DNA from: Escherichia phage vB_EcoM_LNA4
DNA: 64,000 nucleotides
Strand: one strand, 5' to 3'
Sequence record: MZ311864.1
This document shows positions 18,834-45,014 of this stretch, piece by piece. The notes beneath the pieces are model-generated. The model worked only from the letters and a program-made list of their open reading frames with translations. It ran no database searches and was not told the DNA's origin. Within the stretch, counting starts at the first letter, position 1. Each line of letters opens with the position of its first letter. Position numbers and translations under genes: made by a program.

Positions 18834-19481
18834 ATGTCTACTAAGATTTCTGTAACCCGCGCTCTGGCAACTCTGACCAAGATCGAGGGCAAGATCGAAA
18901 AGCGTATCGACCAGTTGAACACTGTTCAGATCGCAAAAGGGACGGAAGATCACCGTTCGATCCCAGGTTCTCTGGTTAGCATTGCTGACTTCGAGACTTC
19001 TGCTAAGGCAGACTTCCAAGGCCTGAAAGACCTGCTGGCAGTACGTGATGAACTGAAGGCGAAAGTTGTTCAGTCCAACGCAGTAACTCTGGTCACCGTT
19101 GGTGGTAAAGAGATGACAGTTGCTCAGGCAATTGAAGGCAAGCGCACAGTTGCTTACAAAGAACTGCTCCTGTCCAAGCTGAAAGCGCAGTACAACTTCG
19201 CTCAGAAGCGCCTTGATAAAGAAGTCGCTGACTTCGAAACCAAGCTGGAACAGGCCCGTGCTCCGTACATCAGTCGTGACAAAGCGCCTGATCCAGAGCA
19301 GATTAAGACGGTAGAAGGTCCGACCCGTCTGATGAGCACACCGTCTATCGTTGACCCGCTGGGTCTGGCAGACGTAATCCGAAATCTGGAGACAGAGATC
19401 GAAGACTTCAAATCCAACGTTGACTTTGTGTTGTCCGAGTCTAACGCACGGACTGAAGTGGAGATTGAGGGATCAATCTAA
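18834..19481 (+). CDS. hypothetical protein
   Basis: 215-aa ORF with GAGAGGAG Shine-Dalgarno. Confidence 0.5.
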   Translation: MSTKISVTRALATLTKIEGKIEKRIDQLNTVQIAKGTEDHRSIPGSLVSIADFETSAKADFQGLKDLLAVRDELKAKVVQSNAVTLVTVGGKEMTVAQAIEGKRTVAYKELLLSKLKAQYNFAQKRLDKEVADFETKLEQARAPYISRDKAPDPEQIKTVEGPTRLMSTPSIVDPLGLADVIRNLETEIEDFKSNVDFVLSESNARTEVEIEGSI

Positions 19482-19489
19482 AATAACTT

Positions 19490-19521
19490 GAGGAATTATG
19501 AAAAACATCTTGTAATTCCTC
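19490..19521 (+). terminator. hairpin GAGGAATTA/TAATTCCTC (terminator-like)
   Basis: 9-bp inverted repeat with a 14-nt loop, 9 nt after the stop at 19481. Confidence 0.3.
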
Positions 19522-19697
19522 TCGTTAACTGATAAAGTTTCAAAATGCTGTTTTTTGGTTAGCGAAGTTGGAAACATCTTGCCTCTACCGAGGCCGGAGG
19601 TTAAACTGCCTCGAACTTAATCATAAGGATGATACTTAACGTATGTTTCCGCAGACCACAACTCTGCCGAAAATATCGAATCGCGAATTCGAAAGAC

Positions 19698-19739
19698 TTC
19701 AAAGTTCAACATTCAAAGATTAAAGTTCAAAGCTTAATG
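19698..19739 (+). repeat. three tandem 14-bp units, each starting TTCAAAG
   Basis: TTCAAAG at 19698, 19712 and 19726 (14-bp period) within a 340-bp ORF-free region. Confidence 0.4.
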
Positions 19740-19868
19740 TTTAAACTTGAAACTTCTAAACCACAAAGCTAAAATTTCGTTGATTATTAAAATCCTGGGT
19801 CAAAGGTCCTTAGCTCACAAGATATGGCTAACCACACCTCCGGGCAGTTAATCGGAAACAGCATTCTT

Positions 19869-19943
19869 GCTCCTAAAGCATAAGTGGCGATGCAGCGGCC
19901 TTGTAAGCCGAGGAAGTGGGTTCGATTCCTACTGGGAGCACCA
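19869..19943 (+). tRNA. tRNA-Thr (TGT)
   Basis: Acceptor GCTCCTA/TGGGAGC, anticodon loop CTTGTAA, T-loop GGGTTCGATTCC, CCA encoded. Confidence 0.6.
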
Positions 19944-19949
19944 AACAAT

Positions 19950-20023
19950 TCGTTGATAGCCTTAGCGGTAAAGGCCCCCTCTGCGCAAGGGGTTCAGTGG
20001 TTCGAATCCACTTCAGCGAGCCA
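19950..20023 (+). tRNA. tRNA-like element, non-canonical (anticodon-position GCG, C37, 3-nt variable loop); possible pseudo-tRNA
   Basis: Good acceptor stem, T-arm AGTGGTTCGAATCCACT and CCA, but the anticodon loop CTGCGCA and D/variable regions are atypical. Confidence 0.3.
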
Positions 20024-20025
20024 AT

Positions 20026-20134
20026 GCAGGGTAGGCGGTTTGTCAACCGCGAGGTCCATCCAGACCTGAAAATAGCTCTCGGCTTGGAGTGGAGAGTGAA
20101 TACATAGGTGGTTAGATTCCACCACCCTGCTCCA
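20026..20134 (+). tRNA. tRNA-like element with a 38-nt insertion between anticodon arm and T-arm
   Basis: 7-bp acceptor GCAGGGT/ACCCTGC, D-stem GCGG/CCGC, anticodon arm AGGTC-CATCCAG-GACCT, T-arm GGTGG-TTAGATT-CCACC and CCA; far too long for a standard tRNA. Confidence 0.25.
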
Positions 20135-20325
20135 AAACATATTTTAAAGTGCATTAGCTCAGATTATTTGATTCACGGACTGATCATCTGTGAGGAGAAT
20201 GAGCCTAACTGAATGGAGTTTCAACGACAAAGGCCACGTTGTTGTAACAGAAGTTCTAAGGTCGTAGAGCGCTGTTCGCGGAGAACAGAGGTCGGTGGAG
20301 TCACCATGCAGCTTAAAATATGTTT

Positions 20326-20403
20326 GCGCTCTTGGTCCAATCTGGTAGAGGCATGGGTGTTAAGCTCCCAGGGTTCCCGGTTCGAGTCCGGGAGGGCGCA
20401 CCA
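20326..20403 (+). tRNA. tRNA with anticodon TAA (Leu-type) in a short-variable-arm scaffold
   Basis: Acceptor GCGCTCT/AGGGCGC, T-arm CCCGG-TTCGAGT-CCGGG, CCA; anticodon stem has a closing mismatch, loop GTTAAGC. Confidence 0.4.
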
Positions 20404-20406
20404 GAA

Positions 20407-20481
20407 CGGGGTATAGTCTAGAGGATAGGCAGGAGTCTTCTAAACTCCTTTACGTAGGTTCGAATCCTACTACCTCGACCA
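20407..20481 (+). tRNA. tRNA-Arg (TCT)
   Basis: Canonical cloverleaf; anticodon loop CTTCTAA; T-loop GGTTCGAATCC; CCA. Confidence 0.65.
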
Positions 20482-20486
20482 CTTAT

Positions 20487-20560
20487 GCGCGGTTGCTGGA
20501 GTGGCAACAGCTTCGGCTGCAAACCGAATGTCAGGTGTTCGATTCACCTACCGTGCTCCA
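20487..20560 (+). tRNA. tRNA-Cys (GCA)
   Basis: Anticodon arm TTCGG-CTGCAAA-CCGAA; T-arm AGGTG-TTCGATT-CACCT; CCA. Confidence 0.6.
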
Positions 20561-20599
20561 AGTTGTTGATATTTTTTGCTATAAATGATAAAATAACCC

Positions 20600-20628
20600 T
20601 TGACAGAGATATTGAACTCTGATAACAT
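20600..20628 (+). promoter_or_regulatory. sigma70-like promoter TTGACA-N17-TAACAT
   Basis: -35 at 20600-20605, -10 at 20623-20628; upstream of the ORF at 20647. Confidence 0.45.
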
Positions 20629-20646
20629 GAATAAGTGGGGTTAATT

Positions 20647-21012
20647 ATGGCAACAAAACAAGCACTTACCAAGCGTCGTAGAGGTAAGGGTCGTCCTTTA
20701 AAAGAGGAGTCTAACGCAATTCAGCTTGAGAAGAACATTCTTGATCTGAAAACAAAGATGATTGCTATGATCCCTGATGCACATATGGTCCTTCGTGATC
20801 TTATGATGAACAAGGATACTAAAGACAACATCCGTGAGAATATTGCTCGTTTCGTTATTGAGGAAGGTAAGCAAATGCTTTCTGATTACTTCGATGAAGA
20901 GAACGAAAATGAAGAAGAAACAAAGAACGTCGATGATGGTTCCGGAAAGGGCGCTGATAAACCAGTAGCAAAACCTTTCTCAACTGACATCGTACAGTTC
21001 AAACAAGGTTAA
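20647..21012 (+). CDS. hypothetical protein with basic N-terminus
   Basis: Track ORF trimmed to ATG 20647; TKRRRGKGRP basic segment, acidic C-terminal half. Confidence 0.45.
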   Translation: MATKQALTKRRRGKGRPLKEESNAIQLEKNILDLKTKMIAMIPDAHMVLRDLMMNKDTKDNIRENIARFVIEEGKQMLSDYFDEENENEEETKNVDDGSGKGADKPVAKPFSTDIVQFKQG

Positions 21013-21014
21013 TT

Positions 21015-21102
21015 GGGGCGGTTCCCGGAGCGGCAAACGGGCGGGATTGTAAATCCCTTGGCATCGCGTCCTTCGTAGGTTCGAGTCCTACTCGCCCCAC
21101 CA
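21015..21102 (+). tRNA. tRNA-Tyr (GTA), long variable arm
   Basis: Acceptor GGGGCGG/TCGCCCC, anticodon loop TTGTAAA, 17-nt variable arm, T-arm GTAGG-TTCGAGT-CCTAC, CCA. Confidence 0.55.
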
Positions 21103-21108
21103 ATTAAC

Positions 21109-21183
21109 GGGAGTATAGCTCAGTGGTAGAGCAAACGGTCGATAACCGTTAGGTCGCTGGTTCAAGCCCAGCTACTCCCACCA
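21109..21183 (+). tRNA. tRNA-Ile (GAT) with C33
   Basis: Canonical arms (GCTCAGTGGTAGAGC D-arm); anticodon loop TCGATAA has C at position 33. Confidence 0.5.
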
Positions 21184-21189
21184 ATTTAA

Positions 21190-21263
21190 GCGGTTAAGCA
21201 CAAGGTGTGTCGCAGGCCTTCCAAGCCTCGCAGAGTAGGGTTCGATTCCCTCTAACCGCTCCA
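21190..21263 (+). tRNA. tRNA-Gly (TCC)
   Basis: Acceptor GCGGTTA/TAACCGC; anticodon loop CTTCCAA; short D-arm; CCA. Confidence 0.55.
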
Positions 21264-21270
21264 AATAAAT

Positions 21271-21346
21271 GCTCCTATCGGCTAAACGGTCAGGCCGCCA
21301 GACTTTCAATCTGGAAATCCGAGTTCGATTCTCGGTGGGAGTGCCA
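21271..21346 (+). tRNA. tRNA-Glu (TTC)
   Basis: Anticodon arm CCAGA-CTTTCAA-TCTGG; T-arm CCGAG-TTCGATT-CTCGG; CCA. Confidence 0.6.
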
Positions 21347-21353
21347 AATTTGT

Positions 21354-21430
21354 AGGGACTTAGCACAATTGGCTAGTGCAGCGGATTCCAAATCCGCAGG
21401 TTCTGGGTTCGAATCCCAGGGTCCCTGCCA
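21354..21430 (+). tRNA. tRNA-Trp (CCA)
   Basis: Anticodon arm GCGGA-TTCCAAA-TCCGC; T-arm CTGGG-TTCGAAT-CCCAG; CCA. Confidence 0.6.
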
Positions 21431-21435
21431 GTTTT

Positions 21436-21511
21436 AGGAGGATGGTGTAATTGGTTAGCACACGGGGCTTTGATCTCCGGAGTTAGGGTTCGAGTCCTTA
21501 TCTTCCTGCCA
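21436..21511 (+). tRNA. tRNA-Gln (TTG)
   Basis: Anticodon loop CTTTGAT; T-arm TAGGG-TTCGAGT-CCTTA; CCA. Confidence 0.55.
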
Positions 21512-21625
21512 AGTTTGAGTGTTTTTATTTGAAAGCACTCATGCGTGGCCTAAGCATTTATCAGATGATGTTCAACCTGTGACGTTGAGGAAGTGGGAGC
21601 GATACCCACAGGTCACCCCAATTTT

Positions 21626-21718
21626 GGTGGAATGGTCGAGCGGTTTAAGACAGCACCTTGGAAAGGTGTCGGCCCCTTCAAACGGGGTCCGTAGGTTCGA
21701 ATCCTACTTCCACCGCCA
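21626..21718 (+). tRNA. tRNA-Ser (GGA), long variable arm
   Basis: Acceptor GGTGGAA/TTCCACC, anticodon loop TTGGAAA, ~21-nt variable arm, T-loop GGTTCGAATCC, CCA. Confidence 0.6.
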
Positions 21719-21732
21719 CTTTAGGAGATATT

Positions 21733-21888
21733 ATGCAGAAACTTTTGCGTTGTAAAAAGGTATTTGGACGCTGTAAGATTCACGGTAGTAACTGTGGTGT
21801 TGCAGATGAAATTCAATCAATCCCTATTACTCGTGCGAAAGAAAAAGCAGATCTTCGTAAAGAAATTAAAGAACAATTGGAAGATTAA
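21733..21888 (+). CDS. small Cys-rich hypothetical protein
   Basis: 51-aa ORF (track ORF trimmed to ATG 21733, AGGAG Shine-Dalgarno); its last codons overlap the 5' end of the next tRNA. Confidence 0.35.
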   Translation: MQKLLRCKKVFGRCKIHGSNCGVADEIQSIPITRAKEKADLRKEIKEQLED

Positions 21889-21969
21889 CCCTAACGGTAA
21901 GGGATCTCTTTGCTAAAGAGACAGTAGCCCCTGAAAAGGGGTGTGTCAGTTCAAGTCTGACATCTTCCT
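21879..21969 (+). tRNA. tRNA-Ser (GCT), long variable arm, CCA not fully encoded
   Basis: Acceptor GGAAGAT/ATCTTCC, anticodon arm TCTCT-TTGCTAA-AGAGA, variable arm with CCCC/GGGG stem, T-arm GTCAG-TTCAAGT-CTGAC. Confidence 0.5.
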
Positions 21970-21971
21970 CC

Positions 21972-22060
21972 GGAGAGCAGGCTGCATGGTGCAGACTCCG
22001 GTTTGAACCCGGTCCCATCGTAGCGATACGGTGACAGTTCGATTCTGTTGCTCTCCTCCA
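21972..22060 (+). tRNA. tRNA-Ser (TGA), long variable arm
   Basis: Acceptor GGAGAGC/GCTCTCC, anticodon loop TTTGAAC, long variable arm, T-loop AGTTCGATTCT, CCA. Confidence 0.5.
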
Positions 22061-22065
22061 AATAT

Positions 22066-22152
22066 GGGTTGGTAGCCAAGCGGCGACGTATGTCTAAGGC
22101 ACTCGACTTTTAATCGAGGGATCGTTGGGTTCGAATCCCACCCGACCCACCA
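22066..22152 (+). tRNA. tRNA-Lys (TTT) with expanded D region
   Basis: Acceptor GGGTTGG/CCGACCC, canonical anticodon arm CTCGA-CTTTTAA-TCGAG, T-loop GGGTTCGAATCCC, CCA; about 10 extra nt in the D region. Confidence 0.45.
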
Positions 22153-22157
22153 TACAA

Positions 22158-22260
22158 CGGGACGATAGTTTAATGAGGCTGGAAATGCGACGGCAACCAG
22201 CGGAGCAGAATGACGGGCATCCAGGACCGTAGGTGAGGTGCAAACCCTCAGATCCCGCCA
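22158..22260 (+). ncRNA. structured tRNA-like element (unclassified)
   Basis: 5' CGGGA pairs with 3' TCCCG followed by CCA; internal hairpins including TGAGG-TGCAAAC-CCTCA; not foldable into a standard cloverleaf by hand. Confidence 0.2.
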
Positions 22261-22321
22261 AATTGAAATAAGTTAAAATAATCCTTGCAAAAGATTGTTT
22301 TCACTGATAAAGTAATTACAT

Positions 22322-22410
22322 GGTTCTTTGACCGAGAGGCCGATGGTAGCAGGCTGTTAACCTGCCTGGAGTAATCCACGACGAAGGTTCGAATCCTTCA
22401 GGAACCGCCA
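22322..22410 (+). tRNA. type-II (Tyr-like scaffold) tRNA with anticodon GTT and discriminator G73 (candidate Asn decoder)
   Basis: Acceptor GGTTCTT/AGGAACC, Tyr-like D region CCGAGAGGCCGATGGTA, anticodon arm GCAGG-CTGTTAA-CCTGC, 17-nt variable arm, T-loop GGTTCGAATCC, G73-CCA. Confidence 0.45.
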
Positions 22411-22453
22411 AATTAGGTGATACGCTACCTTAAGTGCGAACTTGAAAATTAAT

Positions 22454-22530
22454 GGGGCCGTGGCTGACAAGGTAATGGTGCCGCACTGTCTATGCGGAAA
22501 ATGAGGGTTCGATCCCCTTCGGTCTCGCCA
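22454..22530 (+). tRNA. tRNA-Asp (GTC)
   Basis: Acceptor GGGGCCG/CGGTCTC (with G-U pairs), anticodon arm CCGCA-CTGTCTA-TGCGG, T-loop GGGTTCGATCCCC, CCA. Confidence 0.5.
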
Positions 22531-22713
22531 ATTTGATATGTTGATGTAAATTGCCGGAAGGCACTCAAAATGAGTTCGACATATCAAACCAAATACGCTC
22601 TTGCAGGAAAGGTTAGCCTCCCTGCAATGTCACACTAGGTGATCAGAGCGGATCAAATTAGCTAGCCAGCGATACCAGTTGCAGTGTCTGGGACAATTAA
22701 AATTCTGCACCTT

Positions 22714-22791
22714 CGGAGCGTAGCGCAGTCTGGTCAGCGTGGGAGCCTTGGATGCTCTGGGTCGCAGGTTCGAATCCTGCCGCTCCGACCA
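22714..22791 (+). tRNA. tRNA-Pro (TGG)
   Basis: Acceptor CGGAGCG/CGCTCCG, anticodon loop CTTGGAT, T-loop GGTTCGAATCC, CCA. Confidence 0.6.
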
Positions 22792-22796
22792 ATTTA

Positions 22797-22872
22797 GCAG
22801 GTATAGTTCAACTGGACAGAGCATCAGTTTACGAAGCTGAGAATCGGGGTTCGAATCCCTGTATCTGCACCA
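22797..22872 (+). tRNA. tRNA-Arg (ACG)
   Basis: Acceptor GCAGGTA/TATCTGC, anticodon arm TCAGT-TTACGAA-GCTGA, T-loop GGGGTTCGAATCCCT, CCA. Confidence 0.6.
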
Positions 22873-22907
22873 AATTAAGGCTTGGATTTCTTCGGACCCA
22901 AGCGCAC

Positions 22908-22984
22908 GGGCGATTGATGGAATTGGTATACGTGTCGGATTTAGATTCCGAATTTTGGGGGTTCGAGTCCCCTGTCGCCCACCA
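22908..22984 (+). tRNA. tRNA with anticodon TAG (Leu-type) in a short-variable-arm scaffold
   Basis: Acceptor GGGCGAT/GTCGCCC, anticodon arm TCGGA-TTTAGAT-TCCGA, 5-nt variable loop, T-loop GGGGGTTCGAGTCCCCT, A73-CCA. Confidence 0.5.
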
Positions 22985-22991
22985 ATCCTTC

Positions 22992-23067
22992 GGGACTGTA
23001 GCTCAGTTGGTAGAGCACCTGATTGAAGATCAGGGTGTCGGTGGTTCGAATCCACTCGGTCCCGCCA
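22992..23067 (+). tRNA. tRNA-Phe (GAA)
   Basis: Textbook cloverleaf: D-arm GCTCAGTTGGTAGAGC, anticodon arm CCTGA-TTGAAGA-TCAGG, T-loop GGTTCGAATCC, CCA. Confidence 0.7.
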
Positions 23068-23073
23068 AATAAT

Positions 23074-23146
23074 TGCGAGCTAGAATTCTGGTGAATTCAC
23101 GAGTCTCATAAGCTTGTTCAGAGGGGTTCGATTCCGCTGCTCGCAA
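23074..23146 (+). tRNA. tRNA-Met/Ile2 (CAT), CCA not encoded
   Basis: Acceptor TGCGAGC/GCTCGCA, D-arm GAAT/ATTC, anticodon loop CTCATAA, T-loop GGGGTTCGATTCC. Confidence 0.5.
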
Positions 23147-23163
23147 CTAACAGAGGACTTAAT

Positions 23164-23628
23164 GTGAAGATTTGTGGCAAGTGCAAAATAGAAAAAGACT
23201 TTGACCAGTTCCATAAGAAAGGAAAAGGTTATAATCATATTTGCAAAGTTTGCCGCAAAGAGTACATTAAGGATCACTACGAGAAGAACAAAGACGCTTA
23301 CAAGTCAAGATCTAAATCGTGGAAAGAAAACAATCCTCATCGTGTTATAGCTACACGATATGGTGTTGACGAAGATGTTGTTAAAGAAATAATGTCTGTC
23401 GGTAAATGCCAAATTTGCTCATCAACTGAAAACCTCGTGTTCGACCATGTTCACAAAACAAGCGAGCCTAGAGGTTGTTTGTGTCACTCATGCAATACAA
23501 TGCTTGGTCGTCTTGGTGATACTGAAGAACAAATCTTTAAGCGTATGGAAGCTATAAAATCTTATCTTACGCATCCAAAACAATGGGGTATCCAGGAACA
23601 GTCCTGCACCGTAAGTGTCCCTCAGTAG
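23164..23628 (+). CDS. HNH endonuclease (endonuclease VII-type motif), possible homing endonuclease
   Basis: GTG start; CGKCK...CKVC zinc-finger-like N-terminus and VFDHVHKTSEPRGCLCHSCNTMLG core. Confidence 0.5.
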   Translation: MKICGKCKIEKDFDQFHKKGKGYNHICKVCRKEYIKDHYEKNKDAYKSRSKSWKENNPHRVIATRYGVDEDVVKEIMSVGKCQICSSTENLVFDHVHKTSEPRGCLCHSCNTMLGRLGDTEEQIFKRMEAIKSYLTHPKQWGIQEQSCTVSVPQ

Positions 23629-23837: not shown

Positions 23838-25262
23838 ATGCTTCATATCTACCCAAAAGAAGACTTCCAACGTGAATTCAACATCCTCAAAAGCCTGATC
23901 CCGAAAGGTGTGTATGAGATCCTTAAGCGCCTCGATGCTCGTGTTGCAGGTGGTACGCTGACATCACTTTTCTCTAACCGGGAAGTGAATGACCTTGATC
24001 TCTATTTCCCATCCTGGGAGAATCTTGAGGTTTTTCTGGCATACATGACTGATCGTGGACTCTTGGTTGGGGACAGCGATCTTACCCCAACTTCAAACAA
24101 CTGGGGCAACTCGAAGCGTTCATTCGTATACTTCCTTGAACTTGACAAGCCGGGTAGCCATAAAGACTACGTGAATGCCTTGGTATGCGAAAGAAAAGAA
24201 CGACCACCTACAGAGCTTTCAGCTAGCCAGCTTTCAAAGCTTTATTCTTTGCTTGAATCTCGTAATGGCAATGTTTTCAAGGCCATTCAAAAGGCCTCGG
24301 AAGATAACAACCCCGACACCATCTACAATCTGGGGATGACTGATAAGAGCGTCATGTTCACCAATCAATCCTCTCCCGTTATGCAGGTGATCGCATTTGA
24401 TGTTTTTGCTGATGCAGAGGCGATCTTTAACAAGTTCGATTTCACGATCAATATGGGCTGTTTTAGCTTTGCAAGCGAGAAATGGGAGTTTGATAGTCGC
24501 TTCCTGAAACACTTGGCTCAGAAAGTTCTGGTGATTAACCCAGGCACTGATTACCCCATTATCAGTATGCTACGCTCTGATAAGTATCGCGCCCGTGGCT
24601 ACACGATCTCTCGTCGAGAAACAATGAAGCTTGGTATTGCAGCGTCAGGACTTAAAATCGAGTCGTGGGAAGATGCCAAGGCACATTTGAGCGGGATGTA
24701 TGGTACAAACGTTGAAGACTTATTCAATGAAACAAGACCATTTTCATTTGATCTGTTATTTGATAAACTAGATTCAGCGGGGGATTATCTGATCGCCTCT
24801 ATCGCAACTGAATCCGAAAAAGGACAGTTCAGCAGATATCGTGGTCTGAAACCAGAGAACATCTTTACTATGTATCAACGGTTACGTATCAACACCGGGC
24901 GTCCACATTTCTCTAAGCTGTGGGGTGTCTGTCCGGCAGAGAACTTCTATTTGATGCAGGCCAACAATCCGCAACAGGCCGTTGGTCTTCTTGAGACAAA
25001 ACCTGCTGATAAACTCCTCAAGTACATGAACGTTTATATTGATGAGAAAGAGGCGTATGACGTTTACAAATCGTGGGGAGAGAAAGGAAAGACAGGGAGA
25101 TGGGGCGACAGATTATCAAAACCGGGGGCTGTGCTTCTGGAGGTCACTGTCCTTGACCCAACGAAAATCGCCTATGACGATGCACAGATTGACATTTTAG
25201 ATGATGAAGAAACGCTTCTGAAAATAGAGCGGCTTATTGAATCTAACGGGGATATTTCATGA
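23838..25262 (+). CDS. Pol-beta-superfamily nucleotidyltransferase (function unknown; candidate tRNA nucleotidyltransferase-like)
   Basis: Track ORF trimmed to ATG 23838 (AAGGAG Shine-Dalgarno); AGG-x12-DLDLY matches the hG[GS]...DhD nucleotidyltransferase signature; stop overlaps the i-spanin ATG. Confidence 0.35.
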   Translation: MLHIYPKEDFQREFNILKSLIPKGVYEILKRLDARVAGGTLTSLFSNREVNDLDLYFPSWENLEVFLAYMTDRGLLVGDSDLTPTSNNWGNSKRSFVYFLELDKPGSHKDYVNALVCERKERPPTELSASQLSKLYSLLESRNGNVFKAIQKASEDNNPDTIYNLGMTDKSVMFTNQSSPVMQVIAFDVFADAEAIFNKFDFTINMGCFSFASEKWEFDSRFLKHLAQKVLVINPGTDYPIISMLRSDKYRARGYTISRRETMKLGIAASGLKIESWEDAKAHLSGMYGTNVEDLFNETRPFSFDLLFDKLDSAGDYLIASIATESEKGQFSRYRGLKPENIFTMYQRLRINTGRPHFSKLWGVCPAENFYLMQANNPQQAVGLLETKPADKLLKYMNVYIDEKEAYDVYKSWGEKGKTGRWGDRLSKPGAVLLEVTVLDPTKIAYDDAQIDILDDEETLLKIERLIESNGDIS

Positions 25263-39850: not shown

Positions 39851-41263
39851 ATGGCTTATAATGATAAGGTGGTTGACGTTACGGTCACGCTTGGTACTCA
39901 ACCAATCGACACCAAAGGGTTTGAAACCCCGCTGTTCCTGGCTATCCACAACGTCTTCCCTGAACGTTTTCGCGCCTATACCGAACTCGATCAGCTAGTA
40001 GATGATGGATTCGCTCCAGGTTCCCCAGCTTATGTCTTCGCAACAAAAGCATTCGCTGGTACATTCCGTCCTCAGTACCTGATGGTTGGTCGTCAAGGCT
40101 TCACTAATACCATCGTGGACTTCACTGGACAGGTAAATACCGACCCTGAAGCGCCTGTAGCCCTGAACGTAGTTTCCGGTGCTTATCAGACCAGCGTTAT
40201 CGTGGCGGTAACTGGTGCATCCACCCCAACCAGTATTGCTACCGCTCTGGCAGCATCTCTGAATGGTGATGCAACACTGACCACTGTTTTAACTGCAACC
40301 GCCAGCGCAGGTGTGGTAACAATCGCTCCTAAGAATGGTGGTGCATTCAGCGTCGGTCGCGATAGCGGAAACATGACTATCAGCAACACCTCTGGTGAAA
40401 CTGTGTCCTCTGTTCTTCCTCAGATCCTGACTGCAACTGAGAACTGGTACTTCCTGAGCACCGAGTCTCACACCAACGCATCCATCCTGGCTGCTGCTGC
40501 ATTTGCTTCTGCTAACTACAAGCTGCATGTGTATGCAACCGCCGATGAACTGGTTAAAACTGCTGGTAGCAACTCCATTGCTAACCAACTGAAAGCCCTC
40601 CAGTACGATACTTCTATCGGTATGTATGATCCGCTTGCGGATAGCGCATTCTCTGAAGGTGGTATCATCGGTGCAATGGCTTCCAACGATCCTTCTTACG
40701 GTGACTCTATTCACCTGAAGACAATGGAAGGTGTGATTGCTCCTACCCTGAGCGCTACCGACCGTATGACCATTTGGGGACAAAACTTGAACTTCTACCG
40801 TATGATTAACGGTGTTGGTTCCTTCTACGAAGGTAAGTGTGCTTCTGGCAACTACGTAGACGTTGTTCGTTTCGGTCACTGGCTGAAGTTCCGCACAGAA
40901 GAGAGCGTGTTTGGTTACATGTCTCGTCGTTCTAACATGGGTCTCTCCATGAAGATGAGTGATGACGATCTGCCAAACCTGAAGTCCGTGATGATGAACA
41001 ACCCAATCAACGTTGGCATCACCAACGGCTCTATCCTGACGGGATATGATGACGTAAACAAAGTGTTCTACGATCCGGTGATCACAATCCCGCTTCGTGC
41101 AAACATCCCGACTAACGATCTGGCTGCTCGTACTCTGAACAATGTGAAAGTGGAACTTGTGTACAACACACCACTGCACTTCGTTAAGATCCGCATGACC
41201 GTTCTGTTAGATAAAACAGGGTCTAGTTCCGGAAACGGTCAGACTGTAACAGCAGGAGTGTAA
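39851..41263 (+). CDS. tail sheath protein
   Basis: 470-aa ORF directly upstream of tube, chaperone and tape-measure genes (P2-like order); assigned by position and size. Confidence 0.5.
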   Translation: MAYNDKVVDVTVTLGTQPIDTKGFETPLFLAIHNVFPERFRAYTELDQLVDDGFAPGSPAYVFATKAFAGTFRPQYLMVGRQGFTNTIVDFTGQVNTDPEAPVALNVVSGAYQTSVIVAVTGASTPTSIATALAASLNGDATLTTVLTATASAGVVTIAPKNGGAFSVGRDSGNMTISNTSGETVSSVLPQILTATENWYFLSTESHTNASILAAAAFASANYKLHVYATADELVKTAGSNSIANQLKALQYDTSIGMYDPLADSAFSEGGIIGAMASNDPSYGDSIHLKTMEGVIAPTLSATDRMTIWGQNLNFYRMINGVGSFYEGKCASGNYVDVVRFGHWLKFRTEESVFGYMSRRSNMGLSMKMSDDDLPNLKSVMMNNPINVGITNGSILTGYDDVNKVFYDPVITIPLRANIPTNDLAARTLNNVKVELVYNTPLHFVKIRMTVLLDKTGSSSGNGQTVTAGV

Positions 41264-42620: not shown

Positions 42621-45014
42621 ATGGCGAACATTATTGTTACCCAGACAGTCAACAAGGTTGTTTGGGATGTTGATAAGACATCCTACGGACGCGCTCTGAA
42701 AGCCGTCAAGTCTTTGAAGACAGAATGGGAAAAAGCTGGTAAGGCGTTCTCTGCCAGCAAGTCCGACCCCGCAGCAGCACTAAAGCGTTCAGCAATGCAA
42801 GCTCGCCTTGTCAACAAAAGACTGCAACAGACTGAACGTGCTGAACAAGCAAAGACCACAGCCCACAATATCGCGATGGCGAAGAAAGAGGCTCGTGCTC
42901 GTGAAGCAATTGATAAGATCCAAAGAGCACGTAGGAAACAAGCTGTAGCCCAGCTTACAGCAAAACGCTCACCAGAGTCTCAGGCTGATTATAATGGACT
43001 AAAAGCTCGTCTGCGTCAAATGGAAAAAACAGGGGGTGGTTACGGTACTAATCCTGCAATTTCCGCTGCACGTCAAGCTGCACTGCAAGAAGAACTGGCT
43101 CGCCGTTCTAAATCAGGAAACGCTTCAGGTATGGTTGGTAGTGGTACTGCCTCTGATCCGGCACTGATTGCTCGTCAAAACCGTGCAATGCAACAGCAGG
43201 TCCAGCGTCAACAGCAGAAAGCATCCAGAGAGCAACTTCGTGCTCGTGAACAAGCTCGTAAGAAACAAGAGGCAGAAGACCTTCGTTACTCTCGTTATCT
43301 TGCAGGTAAAGAATCTACCGTAGCCAACGCTGCTGTACGTCTTCGTGCAAAATATGGTGATAACTACGCAACGAAACTCAAGGGTTTCGACTCCTTGAAA
43401 GAAAGATTCCTTGACAGCAACACAATGAAGTCTTCTAACTTCCGTGCTGAACTTGCTGCTATGGAGACCGGGCTTCGTAAAGCAAATCAGAACACCCTCT
43501 CCCTGACAGATGGGCTGAAGAACCTGCGTAGCACACTAGTCAGTGTCACTGCTGCTTACGGAGCATTCAACGCTGCTGCAAGTGTTGTAAGAACAGGTCA
43601 GTTCTTCCAGGGTATGGAGGCCACTATGTTGATGGTTTCTGATAACTCAGAGGAGGCTGGTAAGCGCATGAAGTTTGTCCGTGACCAGTCCTACCGTTTA
43701 GGTCTTGATCTTAAGGTAGCGGCACAGGGTTACACGCAGATGGCTATCGCTGCTGACGGTGTTCTGAGTAAATCACAGAACGATGAGTTGTTCAAGTCTT
43801 TCTCTGAGTATGCAACAGCCCTACAGGTTGACCCGGTTAAATACCAACGTGGTATTACCGCGATTCAACAGATGATGGGTAAGGGTCAGATCATGGCTGA
43901 AGAACTTAAGCAACAACTTGCGGAAGGTATTCCGGGTTCTTTACAGGTGTTCATTAAGGCTTCTCAAGAAGCATTCAATGACTCCACCATCGACGTAACC
44001 AAGATGCTCGACATGATGCAGAAGGGTGAGTTGAAGGCTGCTAAAGTTCTACCGTTCGTTGCCAAGTATTACTCTCAAGCTGCAAATAAGGGTGGCGCTC
44101 TACAGACCGCTCTGAAAGGTAACCGTGTTGCAATGCAGCGCCTGACGCTGACATGGATGGACTTCCAGAACAAGGTGTTTGCAAGTGGTTTTGGTGACTC
44201 ATTAACTGAAGCTTTCAACGAACTCTCAAAAATTCTTGACTCCAACGGGCCTTTGGCTCAGAATCTGGGTCAATTCTTCAAGGGGTTCACTGATGGGTTC
44301 ATGTTTATGGTCTACACTGTCTACAACACCTTTGTCCTCATCCAGGGGATCATGGAGCGCTACATCCCGATCTTCCGTAAAAACGGTGAAGAACTTTCCT
44401 CTGCATGGAAATGGGTTGGATGGGGTCTTGGTGCTCTGTTCTTTGCTTCTGCACTTTTCCGTGTGTTCAACATTCTATCCAAAATTGCTGGCCTTTCCGG
44501 AGCACTCGGCTTCCTGAAGACCATCTTTGGTGGCCCTGATGATGAGGAAGGCGGTGGCGGCGATGGTAAGAACAAGAATCGTAAAGGCCCTCGTTTCGGT
44601 AAGTTTGGTAAGGCTGCTCGCTGGTTTGGTCTTTACGGACTAATTGCCGGGGAGAGTATGCTTGCTGGTGATTGGGTGTTCGACCAAGCCCAGGACTACA
44701 GCGACAAGACCTACGGAACTGAGACCACCGCAGGTGGTAACCTTAAGAAAAACTCTTGGATGGGTCAGACGTGGGACTTCATCACAGGACAGAGATCAAT
44801 GACTGACCAGCGCAGACTTGATTATCTGAACCAGAATGGTATGGTTCCTGGACCAGCAGGGGCAGCAACACCTCCGATGGTCATTCCGACAGAACCTGTT
44901 AACGGTGAGATTACGATCAAAATCGACGCAGGCGAAATGAAGAACATGATTGACCAGCAGATTGAAGCTGCGAACATGGGTAACATCAACCTAATCCTTG
45001 GTGTTCCTCAATAA
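42621..45014 (+). CDS. tape measure protein
   Basis: 797-aa, Ala/Gln/Arg-rich coiled-coil N-terminal half, hydrophobic segments (WVGWGLGALFFASALF) and a Gly-rich region near the C-terminus; follows the frameshifted chaperone. Confidence 0.7.
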   Translation: MANIIVTQTVNKVVWDVDKTSYGRALKAVKSLKTEWEKAGKAFSASKSDPAAALKRSAMQARLVNKRLQQTERAEQAKTTAHNIAMAKKEARAREAIDKIQRARRKQAVAQLTAKRSPESQADYNGLKARLRQMEKTGGGYGTNPAISAARQAALQEELARRSKSGNASGMVGSGTASDPALIARQNRAMQQQVQRQQQKASREQLRAREQARKKQEAEDLRYSRYLAGKESTVANAAVRLRAKYGDNYATKLKGFDSLKERFLDSNTMKSSNFRAELAAMETGLRKANQNTLSLTDGLKNLRSTLVSVTAAYGAFNAAASVVRTGQFFQGMEATMLMVSDNSEEAGKRMKFVRDQSYRLGLDLKVAAQGYTQMAIAADGVLSKSQNDELFKSFSEYATALQVDPVKYQRGITAIQQMMGKGQIMAEELKQQLAEGIPGSLQVFIKASQEAFNDSTIDVTKMLDMMQKGELKAAKVLPFVAKYYSQAANKGGALQTALKGNRVAMQRLTLTWMDFQNKVFASGFGDSLTEAFNELSKILDSNGPLAQNLGQFFKGFTDGFMFMVYTVYNTFVLIQGIMERYIPIFRKNGEELSSAWKWVGWGLGALFFASALFRVFNILSKIAGLSGALGFLKTIFGGPDDEEGGGGDGKNKNRKGPRFGKFGKAARWFGLYGLIAGESMLAGDWVFDQAQDYSDKTYGTETTAGGNLKKNSWMGQTWDFITGQRSMTDQRRLDYLNQNGMVPGPAGAATPPMVIPTEPVNGEITIKIDAGEMKNMIDQQIEAANMGNINLILGVPQ

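Follow-up and report, generated by a model that had tools for sequence, protein, structure and literature searches.

The 64,000-nucleotide (nt) stretch of Escherichia phage vB_EcoM_LNA4 analyzed here (sequence record MZ311864.1; hereafter the window, numbered from its first letter, 5' to 3') carries within an array of transfer RNA (tRNA) genes a tRNA-like element at positions 20026-20134, referred to below as element 2; two further tRNA-like sequences of the same array, elements 1 and 3, are considered after it. We regard it as highly probable that element 2 specifies a functional non-decoding tRNA-like RNA, and the fuller reading, that it is the gene for a stable tRNA-shaped non-decoding RNA belonging to a new family that travels in phage tRNA arrays, is given a probability of roughly 0.55. 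To judge from the conservation and covariation of its sequence, it is a tRNA-shaped RNA gene under strong structural selection, in which the top half and the elbow are intact, the decoding arm is defective, and the junction is specialized. The kind of RNA is known from the tRNA clusters of phages T4 and T5, while the family is new, non-homologous to those RNAs and of a distinct design, in which the tRNA core is complete, the anticodon arm is truncated, and the variable domain is enlarged and has an invariant junction. No paper describing the family was found in the literature, and the family is absent from Rfam 15. By its 95-97% identity to Cronobacter phage GAP31, Enterobacter phage EC152, and Escherichia phage 4MG, and its approximately 84-87% identity to Klebsiella and Proteus Mydovirus phages, the region 19500-23300 places the window phage in the genus Seunavirus (GAP31/4MG-like) of the Vequintavirinae and represents the tRNA array of this phage.

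The minimum-energy fold of element 2 contains all the parts ascribed to it by a first-pass annotation of the window, namely a 7-base-pair (bp) acceptor stem, D, anticodon, and T arms, and a 3' CCA (Table 1). Its minimum free energy of -47.3 kcal/mol (z-score of -4.4) was equaled by none of the shuffled sequences (0/200). Nucleotides A8 and G9 separate the acceptor stem from the D arm, and G26 separates the D arm from the anticodon-like stem. Two drawings of the D arm are possible, one having 6 bp in the stem and 4 nt in the loop, the other having 4 bp in the stem and the 8-nt loop UUUGUCAA; the second form is equally possible, since the extra pairs U14-A21 and U15-A20 never vary. The hairpin-forming insertion that had been noticed in place of the variable loop is present, although the variable region containing it measures 39 nt and not 38, the norm being 4-5 nt for class I and approximately 10-24 nt for class II tRNAs. 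The anticodon arm is likewise present, but its loop is one nucleotide short, which had been overlooked.

Table 1. Coordinates of element 2 and of neighboring features in the window.
Feature	Position	Strand	Basis or characteristics
Element 2, acceptor 5' strand, pairs with 20124-20130	20026-20032	+	7 pairs, 100% of cells paired, 5 pairs doubly changed (34 sequences)
Element 2, D arm	20035-20050	+	3 pairs doubly changed
Element 2, anticodon-like arm, 5-bp stem and 6-nt loop CAUCCA	20052-20067	+	stem covaries
Element 2, 5' linker GAAAAUA, 7 nt	20068-20074	+	conserved columns, 34 sequences
Element 2, extra (variable-region) hairpin, 23 nt	20075-20097	+	at least 9 sequence types, each a hairpin
Element 2, 3' linker GAAUACAUA, 9 nt	20098-20106	+	AUACAUA invariant, 34/34
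Element 2, T arm, 5-bp stem and loop UUAGAUU (UUCGAUU in relatives)	20107-20123	+	
Element 2, acceptor 3' strand, then U73 and encoded CCA	20124-20134	+	
Element 1, aberrant tRNA-Arg(GCG)-like gene	19950-20023	+	ARAGORN cloverleaf
tRNA-Thr(UGU), directly 5' of element 1	19869-19943	+	ARAGORN; Rfam, 51.9 bits
Candidate sigma-70-like promoter TTGAAA-17-TAAAAT, 5' of the tRNA-Thr/element 1/element 2 unit	19747-19775	+	consensus scan only
Structured spacer cassette between element 2 and tRNA-Leu	20135-20325	+	z-score of -4.2
Element 3, 103-nt presence/absence cassette after tRNA-Lys, with T-arm-like hairpin and 3' CCA	22158-22260	+	
474-aa protein just past the array, PHROG 16176 (unknown function)	23838-25262	+	pol-beta nucleotidyltransferase motif, weak match

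Using BLAST, element 2 was found in 61 phage records, in which it bears no tRNA annotation; the entries named tRNA-Arg, tRNA-Ser, or tRNA-Ile in these records correspond to the gene in the slot between tRNA-Thr and element 2 (slot 1), which element 1 occupies in the window. In a MAFFT alignment of 18 distinct copies (alignment A2), 92.5% of the cells are paired and 14 pairs are changed on both sides, and none of 500 shuffles (0/500) was as good. A covariance model of the family (R1), which was built and run on loci gathered from IMG/VR, metagenomes, and GenBank, gave 43 matches representing 34 distinct element 2 sequences. The model-fitted alignment of these 34 sequences (alignment A3) has 99.3% of its cells paired and double changes in 13/24 pairs, whereas only 34-47% are paired in controls with the partner slid by 1-3 columns; fitting A3 to the model inflates these pair counts, which tells against our reading, though the MAFFT alignment A2 agrees with them. 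Element 2 is conserved with compensatory changes in two unrelated groups of phages, and all homologues adopt the same fold.

The covariation includes a tertiary contact. In the D loop, the second variable base is U or G, and in the T loop the third base is A or C; the two form U-A in 13 and G-C in 21 of the 34 sequences, with no broken combination (0/34); in the window, U 20043 stands opposite A 20114. On this sequence pattern the pair is identified as the counterpart of the tRNA elbow pair G19:C56, and the perfect covariation makes it very probable that element 2 folds as an L shape. Positions 8 and 14 are occupied by invariant A and U, respectively, reversed from the usual U8-A14, and U15 together with the last A of AUACAUA could stand in for the 15-48 pair. 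The nucleotides invariant in 34/34 sequences comprise U7-A8, G10, the UUUG and AA of the D loop, C25-G26, the AAA of the 5' linker, AUACAUAGG, and GGUU.GAUUCC, and the full GAAAA of the 5' linker is nearly invariant across the family. By inspection, the invariant linkers have no consistent Watson-Crick partner in each other or in the loops.

The anticodon-like arm, by comparison, takes several forms, spanning 14-16 nt in all members and never 17 nt, with loops of 3-7 nt. A 5-bp stem with a 6-nt loop (CAUCCA, CUUCCA, CAGCCA, CCGCCA, CCACCA, or CCUCCA) is found in Seunavirus and Mydovirus phages, and a 4-bp stem with a 7-nt loop (CAUCAAA, UAUCAAA, or AAUCAAG) in Henunavirus, in phage UTK0002, and in five metagenome or IMG/VR contigs (L178, L245, L246, L253, and L256). 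The arm consists of 6 bp and 3 nt (equivalently, 5 bp and 5 nt) in the Av-05/TH18 group, where the element is 100 nt long and CCA is not encoded, and of 4 bp and 6 nt in one metagenome contig. The total length is 108-110 nt in most members. The extra hairpin is represented by at least nine unrelated sequences, the hairpin being kept every time. One of its types, with the loop GAACUAACAG, is common to FENT2, several Mydovirus phages, Henunavirus, UTK0002, and L178, and the stems of this type covary (GCC/GGC, GUC/GAC, and UUCC/GGAA). Since the extra-arm type tracks neither the genus nor the type of the downstream cassette, mosaic recombination is indicated.

The 34 distinct sequences are distributed over four Vequintavirinae genera (Seunavirus, Mydovirus, Avunavirus-like phages Av-05 and TH18, and Henunavirus), one Schitoviridae phage (UTK0002), and IMG/VR and metagenome contigs. 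Two pattern scans of IMG/VR were over-permissive and yielded mostly chance loci, from which the covariance model left a single new member, L178. The element is present at 85-88% identity in the N4-like phage UTK0002, which shows horizontal transfer between unrelated phage families; no protein neighbor common to the Vequintavirinae and UTK0002 contexts was seen in 10 kb of UTK0002. Element 2 always lies within a tRNA array and starts 2-3 nt past the CCA of element 1, tRNA-Thr, tRNA-Leu, or tRNA-Ser, the exception being phage Ro1, where a coding sequence and not a tRNA precedes it. A host origin was rejected, as no match was obtained in 5,426 E. coli genomes or in the GTDB representative genomes.

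With respect to known RNA classes, element 2 agrees with tRNAs in its 7-bp acceptor stem, its 5-bp T stem with T-loop, its discriminator and CCA, the covariation of its helices, and the counterpart of the 19:56 elbow pair, while it lacks the canonical anticodon arm of 5 bp and 7 nt with U33 and a purine at position 37. ARAGORN in standard mode made no call, and the Rfam tRNA model RF00005 (gathering score of 29 bits) gave no match, even at E<=10 in a 391-nt search. For element 2, Rfam at the gathering and E<=10 thresholds produced weak, sub-threshold matches to selenocysteine tRNA (tRNA-Sec) only, the best model being RF01852, with 23.7 bits for the window copy and 37.6-39.1 bits for the Henunavirus and UTK0002 copies at a threshold of 47. 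Identity with tRNA-Sec was rejected on these scores and on the 7/5 geometry with U73 of the window copy and most members, as opposed to 8/5 with G73. Transfer-messenger RNA (tmRNA) and YrlA were rejected as well, since ARAGORN reported no tmRNA and the YrlA scores did not exceed 22 bits (threshold of 69) and fell on adjacent true tRNAs.

The nearest analogues are the annotated tRNA-like stable RNAs of unknown function RNA1, RNA2, and RNA3 (also RNAI, RNAIII, and RNAIV) of T5 and rnaC and rnaD (species 1 and 2) of T4. For about fifty years, such stable RNAs have been on record in the tRNA clusters of T4 and T5, and to our knowledge no function has been found for them. Like element 2, these RNAs, 73-144 nt long, lie inside the tRNA cluster of a lytic phage and are flanked by tRNAs; T5 RNA1 and RNA2 and T4 rnaC have a T arm with a 7-nt loop, which is canonical in RNA2 and rnaC, an acceptor-like closing stem, and extra hairpins. 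They form an analogy class and are not homologous to element 2, as model R1 matches only true tRNAs there, at 29 bits or less. Unlike them, element 2 has retained a full tRNA core, including D arm, elbow pair, and CCA, and its expansion affects the variable region and not the anticodon arm. Element 2 resembles bacterial tRNA-Sec in the long extra arm and, if the D arm is drawn with 6 bp and a 4-nt loop, in that arm as well, and both tRNA-Sec and suppressor tRNAs in the UCA at the anticodon position of the Henunavirus, UTK0002, and L178 versions, but it differs from tRNA-Sec in its anticodon stem of 4-5 bp, in the window loop of 6 nt without UCA, and in an extra arm placed between long invariant linkers.

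A long variable arm that is free in sequence yet kept as a hairpin is also characteristic of class II tRNAs (Ser, Leu, and Tyr) and allo-tRNAs in phage and bacterial data. Allo-tRNAs have normal anticodon loops, and the variable regions of class II tRNAs, approximately 10-24 nt long, start one or two nucleotides past the anticodon stem; element 2, with a variable region of 39 nt and linkers of 7 and 9 nt, is unlike the latter. For allo-tRNAs, an 8/4 or 9/3 geometry is described (Mukai et al., 2017; PMC5389517). Analogies of the "works like" type are provided by the tRNA-like domain of tmRNA, the YrlA/Y RNA domain, and the tRNA-like structures of plant viruses, although element 2 belongs to none of these and has no G3.U70. 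Such RNAs engage tRNA-binding proteins via the shape of the acceptor, T arm, and elbow, and do so without decoding.

A mechanism for element 2 can be proposed along these lines. The element would be co-transcribed with the neighboring tRNAs, perhaps from the promoter-like site at 19747-19775, and, following the rules of RNase P cleavage and tRNA 3'-end maturation, the transcript would be cut by RNase P at G1 and trimmed to the encoded CCA. The RNA would then fold into an L shape and, by analogy with tmRNA, Y RNAs, and viral tRNA-like structures, might occupy or recruit a protein that reads the tRNA top half, i.e., acceptor, T arm, and elbow, with the specificity presumably conferred by the GAAAA/AUACAUA junction and the extra arm. 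Given the hypervariable arm of the element and its passage as an accessory module from one phage family to another, we would favor a role as decoy against, or competitor of, a host factor that targets tRNAs, or else as partner of a tRNA enzyme of the phage, with no adaptor role on the ribosome. A bolder version, which we consider rather improbable, is that the tRNA mimic is exchanged as an accessory weapon, being either a decoy or inhibitor of a host tRNA-targeting defense enzyme (e.g., a nuclease acting on the anticodon or the acceptor end, or a toxin that modifies CCA) or a charged off-ribosome carrier; the arm would be the record of an arms race, and the divergent, CCA-adding-like protein encoded at 23838-25262 might mature or repair the RNA. 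Phage tRNAs are currently pictured as counter-measures to tRNA-cleaving immunity (PMC10264068), and an anti-defense decoy, if real, would add an RNA-based branch to that view.

The alternative that survives best, though unlikely, is that element 2 is a processing module only, serving as a handle by which RNase P and 3' exonucleases would be led to cut the polycistronic transcript beside the adjoining tRNAs and structured cassettes, with a functionless mature RNA. The element adjoins the upstream tRNA at a distance of 2-3 nt and directly precedes a long closed structured cassette, and the acceptor/T minihelix and CCA, which are the substrate determinants of RNase P, are conserved. However, a mere handle needs neither an intact D arm nor a covarying elbow pair, invariant linkers, or the length of 108-110 nt conserved in most members; RNase P sites are already supplied by the neighboring tRNAs, and the form of the element is unchanged in differing contexts, whether after tRNA-Thr, tRNA-Leu, tRNA-Ser, or a coding sequence.

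Several further points weigh against a stable non-decoding RNA. Its stability is read from anatomy only, and a decoy or protein-binding role, which we hold as a tentative possibility, involves a partner that is postulated. Some decoding or charging by element 2 may occur, and a decoding tRNA of odd shape, i.e., an opal suppressor or tRNA-Sec-like RNA, an intron-containing tRNA-Gly, or a tRNA that promotes frameshifting and has an anticodon loop of 6 or 8 nt, is the next alternative, slightly less likely than a processing handle. The Henunavirus version carried by Erwinia phages pEp_SNUABM_01 and Hena1 is annotated in GenBank as "tRNA-TERM, suppressor"; the Henunavirus, UTK0002, and L178 versions combine the 7-nt loop with UCA at the anticodon position, and it is the Henunavirus and UTK0002 copies with the loop CAUCAAA that score 37.6-39.1 bits on the tRNA-Sec model. 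The main-group loop C-N-N-C-C-A, with C-C kept at "35-36", U73, and C2-G71, resembles glycine identity in part, and ARAGORN in intron mode reads the window copy as tRNA-Gly(tcc) with a 17-nt intron. This intron model was rejected, as its proposed 3' stem strand sits in the hypervariable, non-conserved extra arm. More generally, no member combines the canonical 5-bp stem and 7-nt loop, the members whose loop has 7 nt carry A or C at position 33, the "anticodon" varies by group (NCC, UCA, UAU/UUU, or GAU-like), and all element 2 scores lie under the Rfam thresholds, with an acceptor/T geometry of 7/5 and U73. The suppressor reading is improbable, given a loop and stem that depart from the canonical form and an "anticodon" that lacks conservation in the family.

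A reading of elements 1 and 2 as tRNA pseudogenes in decay, or as junk in the spacers, is much less probable. In its favor, both fail the Rfam tRNA model, and slot 1 holds differing odd genes in relatives, with no occupant in K54lambda, Ro1, and Henunavirus. Against this, 99% of the cells of element 2 are paired and 13 of its pairs doubly changed, its single-stranded motifs are invariant, and it is shared at 75-88% identity across phage families; in element 1 pairing is kept at all three stem substitutions, in one case by a double change, and the acceptor stems of slot-1 genes differ in a compensatory manner. For element 2, the pseudo-tRNA suggested by the first-pass annotation, taken in the sense of decaying junk, is refuted by structural selection, the covarying tertiary pair, and the spread between phage families. 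Of its other suggestions, the processing substrate fits the anatomy if read as a tRNA-derived non-decoding RNA on which RNase P and CCA processing act, and a regulatory role would be putative. A small protein gene is scarcely credible: an ATG at 20024-20026 does open a frame of 27 codons, closed by the invariant TAG of ACATAGG, and short coding sequences are annotated over element 2 in Mydo, SSE-121, KE22, NDO71, and Salmonella phage 41, but this sole shared frame is stopped internally in Av05-like, Henunavirus, UTK0002, L178, and some Seunavirus copies and shifted by 1-nt indels, and stem changes that are radical for a protein nevertheless keep the pairing, so that the coding reading was rejected.

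The element 2 family, read as a stable non-decoding RNA, is an unusually clean case for study, as covariation establishes its structure, one tertiary contact included. A binding site is suggested by the invariant single-stranded core, and the natural variants of the extra arm are swappable. The element is present in easily grown phages (GAP31, 4MG, PVP-SE1, and Klebsiella phages) as well as in an unrelated N4-like phage. Approximately 60 GenBank genomes miss or mis-annotate it, leaving it blank or naming it a "hypothetical protein" or "suppressor tRNA", which the covariance model would fix.

Element 1 breaks tRNA rules in the way described earlier, the ARAGORN cloverleaf confirming its acceptor stem, T-arm, and CCA as well as the C at position 37 and the 3-nt variable loop. 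ARAGORN identifies it as tRNA-Arg(gcg), with an acceptor stem of 7 bp (U1-A72), a D stem of 4 bp, and an anticodon stem of 5 bp. The 7-nt anticodon loop CU-GCG-CA contains U33, position 37 is not a purine, nucleotide 26 is missing, and the variable loop UUC falls short of the class I norm of 4-5 nt; the T arm is canonical, with GG in the D loop, the T loop UUCGAAU, and a 3' end of G73-CCA. The fold of element 1 is not unusual on its own (z-score of -1.6), and RF00005, at the same gathering score, gave no match even at E<=10 in the 391-nt search. The gene is annotated as tRNA-Arg in GAP31 and left blank in the records of 4MG and FENT2. The exact gene is restricted to close relatives, among which the Salmonella phage 41 copy has A29-U41 for C29-G41 (a double change) and U4-A69 for U4.G69, all three observed stem substitutions keeping the pairing, and the FENT2 copy has one different D-loop base.

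In other Vequintavirinae, slot 1 contains related genes with U1-A72, G73-CCA, and a canonical T loop, in which the T stem covaries and the acceptor stems differ by compensatory changes. The anticodon loop of these genes is ACGAUA (6 nt) in Mydo, K18PH07C1, DP, and AV124, AAGAUUC or ACGAUUC (7 nt, with A or C at position 33) in PVP-SE1 and KE22, ACAGAUCC (8 nt) in CspD17, and longer than 8 nt in NDO71. The PVP-SE1 and CspD17 genes pass the tRNA model (47.9 and 48.9 bits, respectively), whereas those of Mydo and KE22 fail. Judged by these comparisons, element 1 is one state of a fast-evolving, structurally maintained tRNA-like slot. It may be an odd working tRNA-Arg, since its loop is the most tRNA-like of the slot-1 set, or else another non-decoding tRNA-like RNA.

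The cassette that follows element 2 is closed by a 12-13-bp inverted repeat, AACATATTTTAA / TTAAAATATGTT, with compensatory changes among relatives, and has no Rfam match. At the same site, other Vequintavirinae carry at least three different cassettes of 170-190 nt, each with its own long inverted repeat; the outer bases AACAT...ATGTT are common to most of them, and two cassettes stand in tandem in PVP-SE1 and FENT2. These cassettes look like interchangeable structured-RNA modules, possibly excised through their stems in an RNase III-type manner. Within the window cassette, the hairpin CACGGA-CUGAUCA-UCUGUG (20176-20194) has a 7-nt loop that mimics the anticodon loop of tRNA-Ile(GAU), except for C37. 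C37 is also found in element 1, and GAU recurs in the slot-1 loops of relatives, which may be a coincidence.

Element 3 occurs in six copies that are 100% identical, in the window, GAP31, 4MG, FENT2, the Mydovirus phage VIK251, and the IMG/VR contig L026, so that there is no variation from which covariation could be read. The adjacent tRNA-Lys genes differ strongly among the carriers, and in KB57 and PVP-SE1, which lack the element, tRNA-Lys is followed directly by the promoter region AAATTGAA...; the identical copies beside divergent tRNA-Lys genes and the absence from these two phages identify element 3 as a cassette inserted after the CCA of tRNA-Lys. The element contains a hairpin in which 5 bp close a 7-nt loop, and after which comes GAUCCCGCCA; its acceptor-like pairing extends over approximately 5 bp only. 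It had been described as a structured element with a 3' CCA; the sequence and its CCA end are present, but the fold is no better than that of shuffled sequences (z-score of -0.19, 85/200). ARAGORN made no call even in relaxed intron mode, Rfam gave no match, exact-pattern scans for divergent copies returned known phages only, and no match was obtained in 5,426 E. coli genomes or the GTDB representative genomes. Element 3 is unrelated to elements 1 and 2, and we would guess that it may be a degenerate tRNA-like gene gained by recombination at the CCA end.

In total, ARAGORN predicts 22 tRNAs between 17029 and 23147, every one on the + strand, and 20 array tRNAs are confirmed by Rfam at the gathering score. 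The other Arg tRNAs of the array are tRNA-Arg(ACG) and tRNA-Arg(UCU), according to ARAGORN. Structurally eccentric tRNAs are abundant throughout. The genes for tRNA-Lys(UUU) (22066-22149) and tRNA-Asn(GUU) (22322-22410) measure 84 and 89 nt, respectively, and the tRNA-Asn has a long extra arm, both being normally class I tRNAs. An unannotated cloverleaf at 21545-21620, for which neither ARAGORN nor Rfam made a call, has the anticodon loop CUGUGAC (GUG = His), C73-CCA, and the non-canonical T loop AGCGAUA, and is probably an eccentric tRNA-His. A tRNA-Gly(UCC)-like gene at 21189-21260, where the GAP31 record lists tRNA-Gly, matches neither ARAGORN nor RF00005 in the window, its sole match being the tRNA-Sec model with 29 bits. 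The spacers 19560-19660 (z-score of -2.4) and 22531-22670 (z-score of -3.8) fold better than shuffled sequences; the former is a three-hairpin element closed by GGAAACAU/AUGUUUCC, with a weak match to model R1 (18.5 bits). No informative domain was found in the product of the coding sequence 20647-21012 (PHROG 3330), located within the array.

The 474-aa protein encoded just past the array was modeled by AlphaFold2 with a pLDDT of 81.9. The top Foldseek matches of the model in the PDB (3aql, 3h39, 5hc9, and 4wby) have a probability of 1.0 with TM-scores of only 0.25-0.36 and represent class-II CCA-adding enzymes and the E. coli poly(A) polymerase, a remote fold similarity. Homologues were found in 138 phage records, including jumbo, Vibrio, Aeromonas, and Bacillus phages. 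The protein may be a divergent phage tRNA 3'-end nucleotidyltransferase; it is tied to elements 1-3 by genome position only. Upstream of the array, the gene at 18834-19481 encodes a 215-aa protein of PHROG 1491, annotated as "tail fiber protein", with homologues in 728 phage records. Its T5 homologue, ORF080 (43,429-44,064), is located approximately 2.5 kb past the T5 tRNA region, in which the last tRNA ends at 40,847. This recurring proximity to tRNA arrays, in the window phage and in T5, may merit attention.

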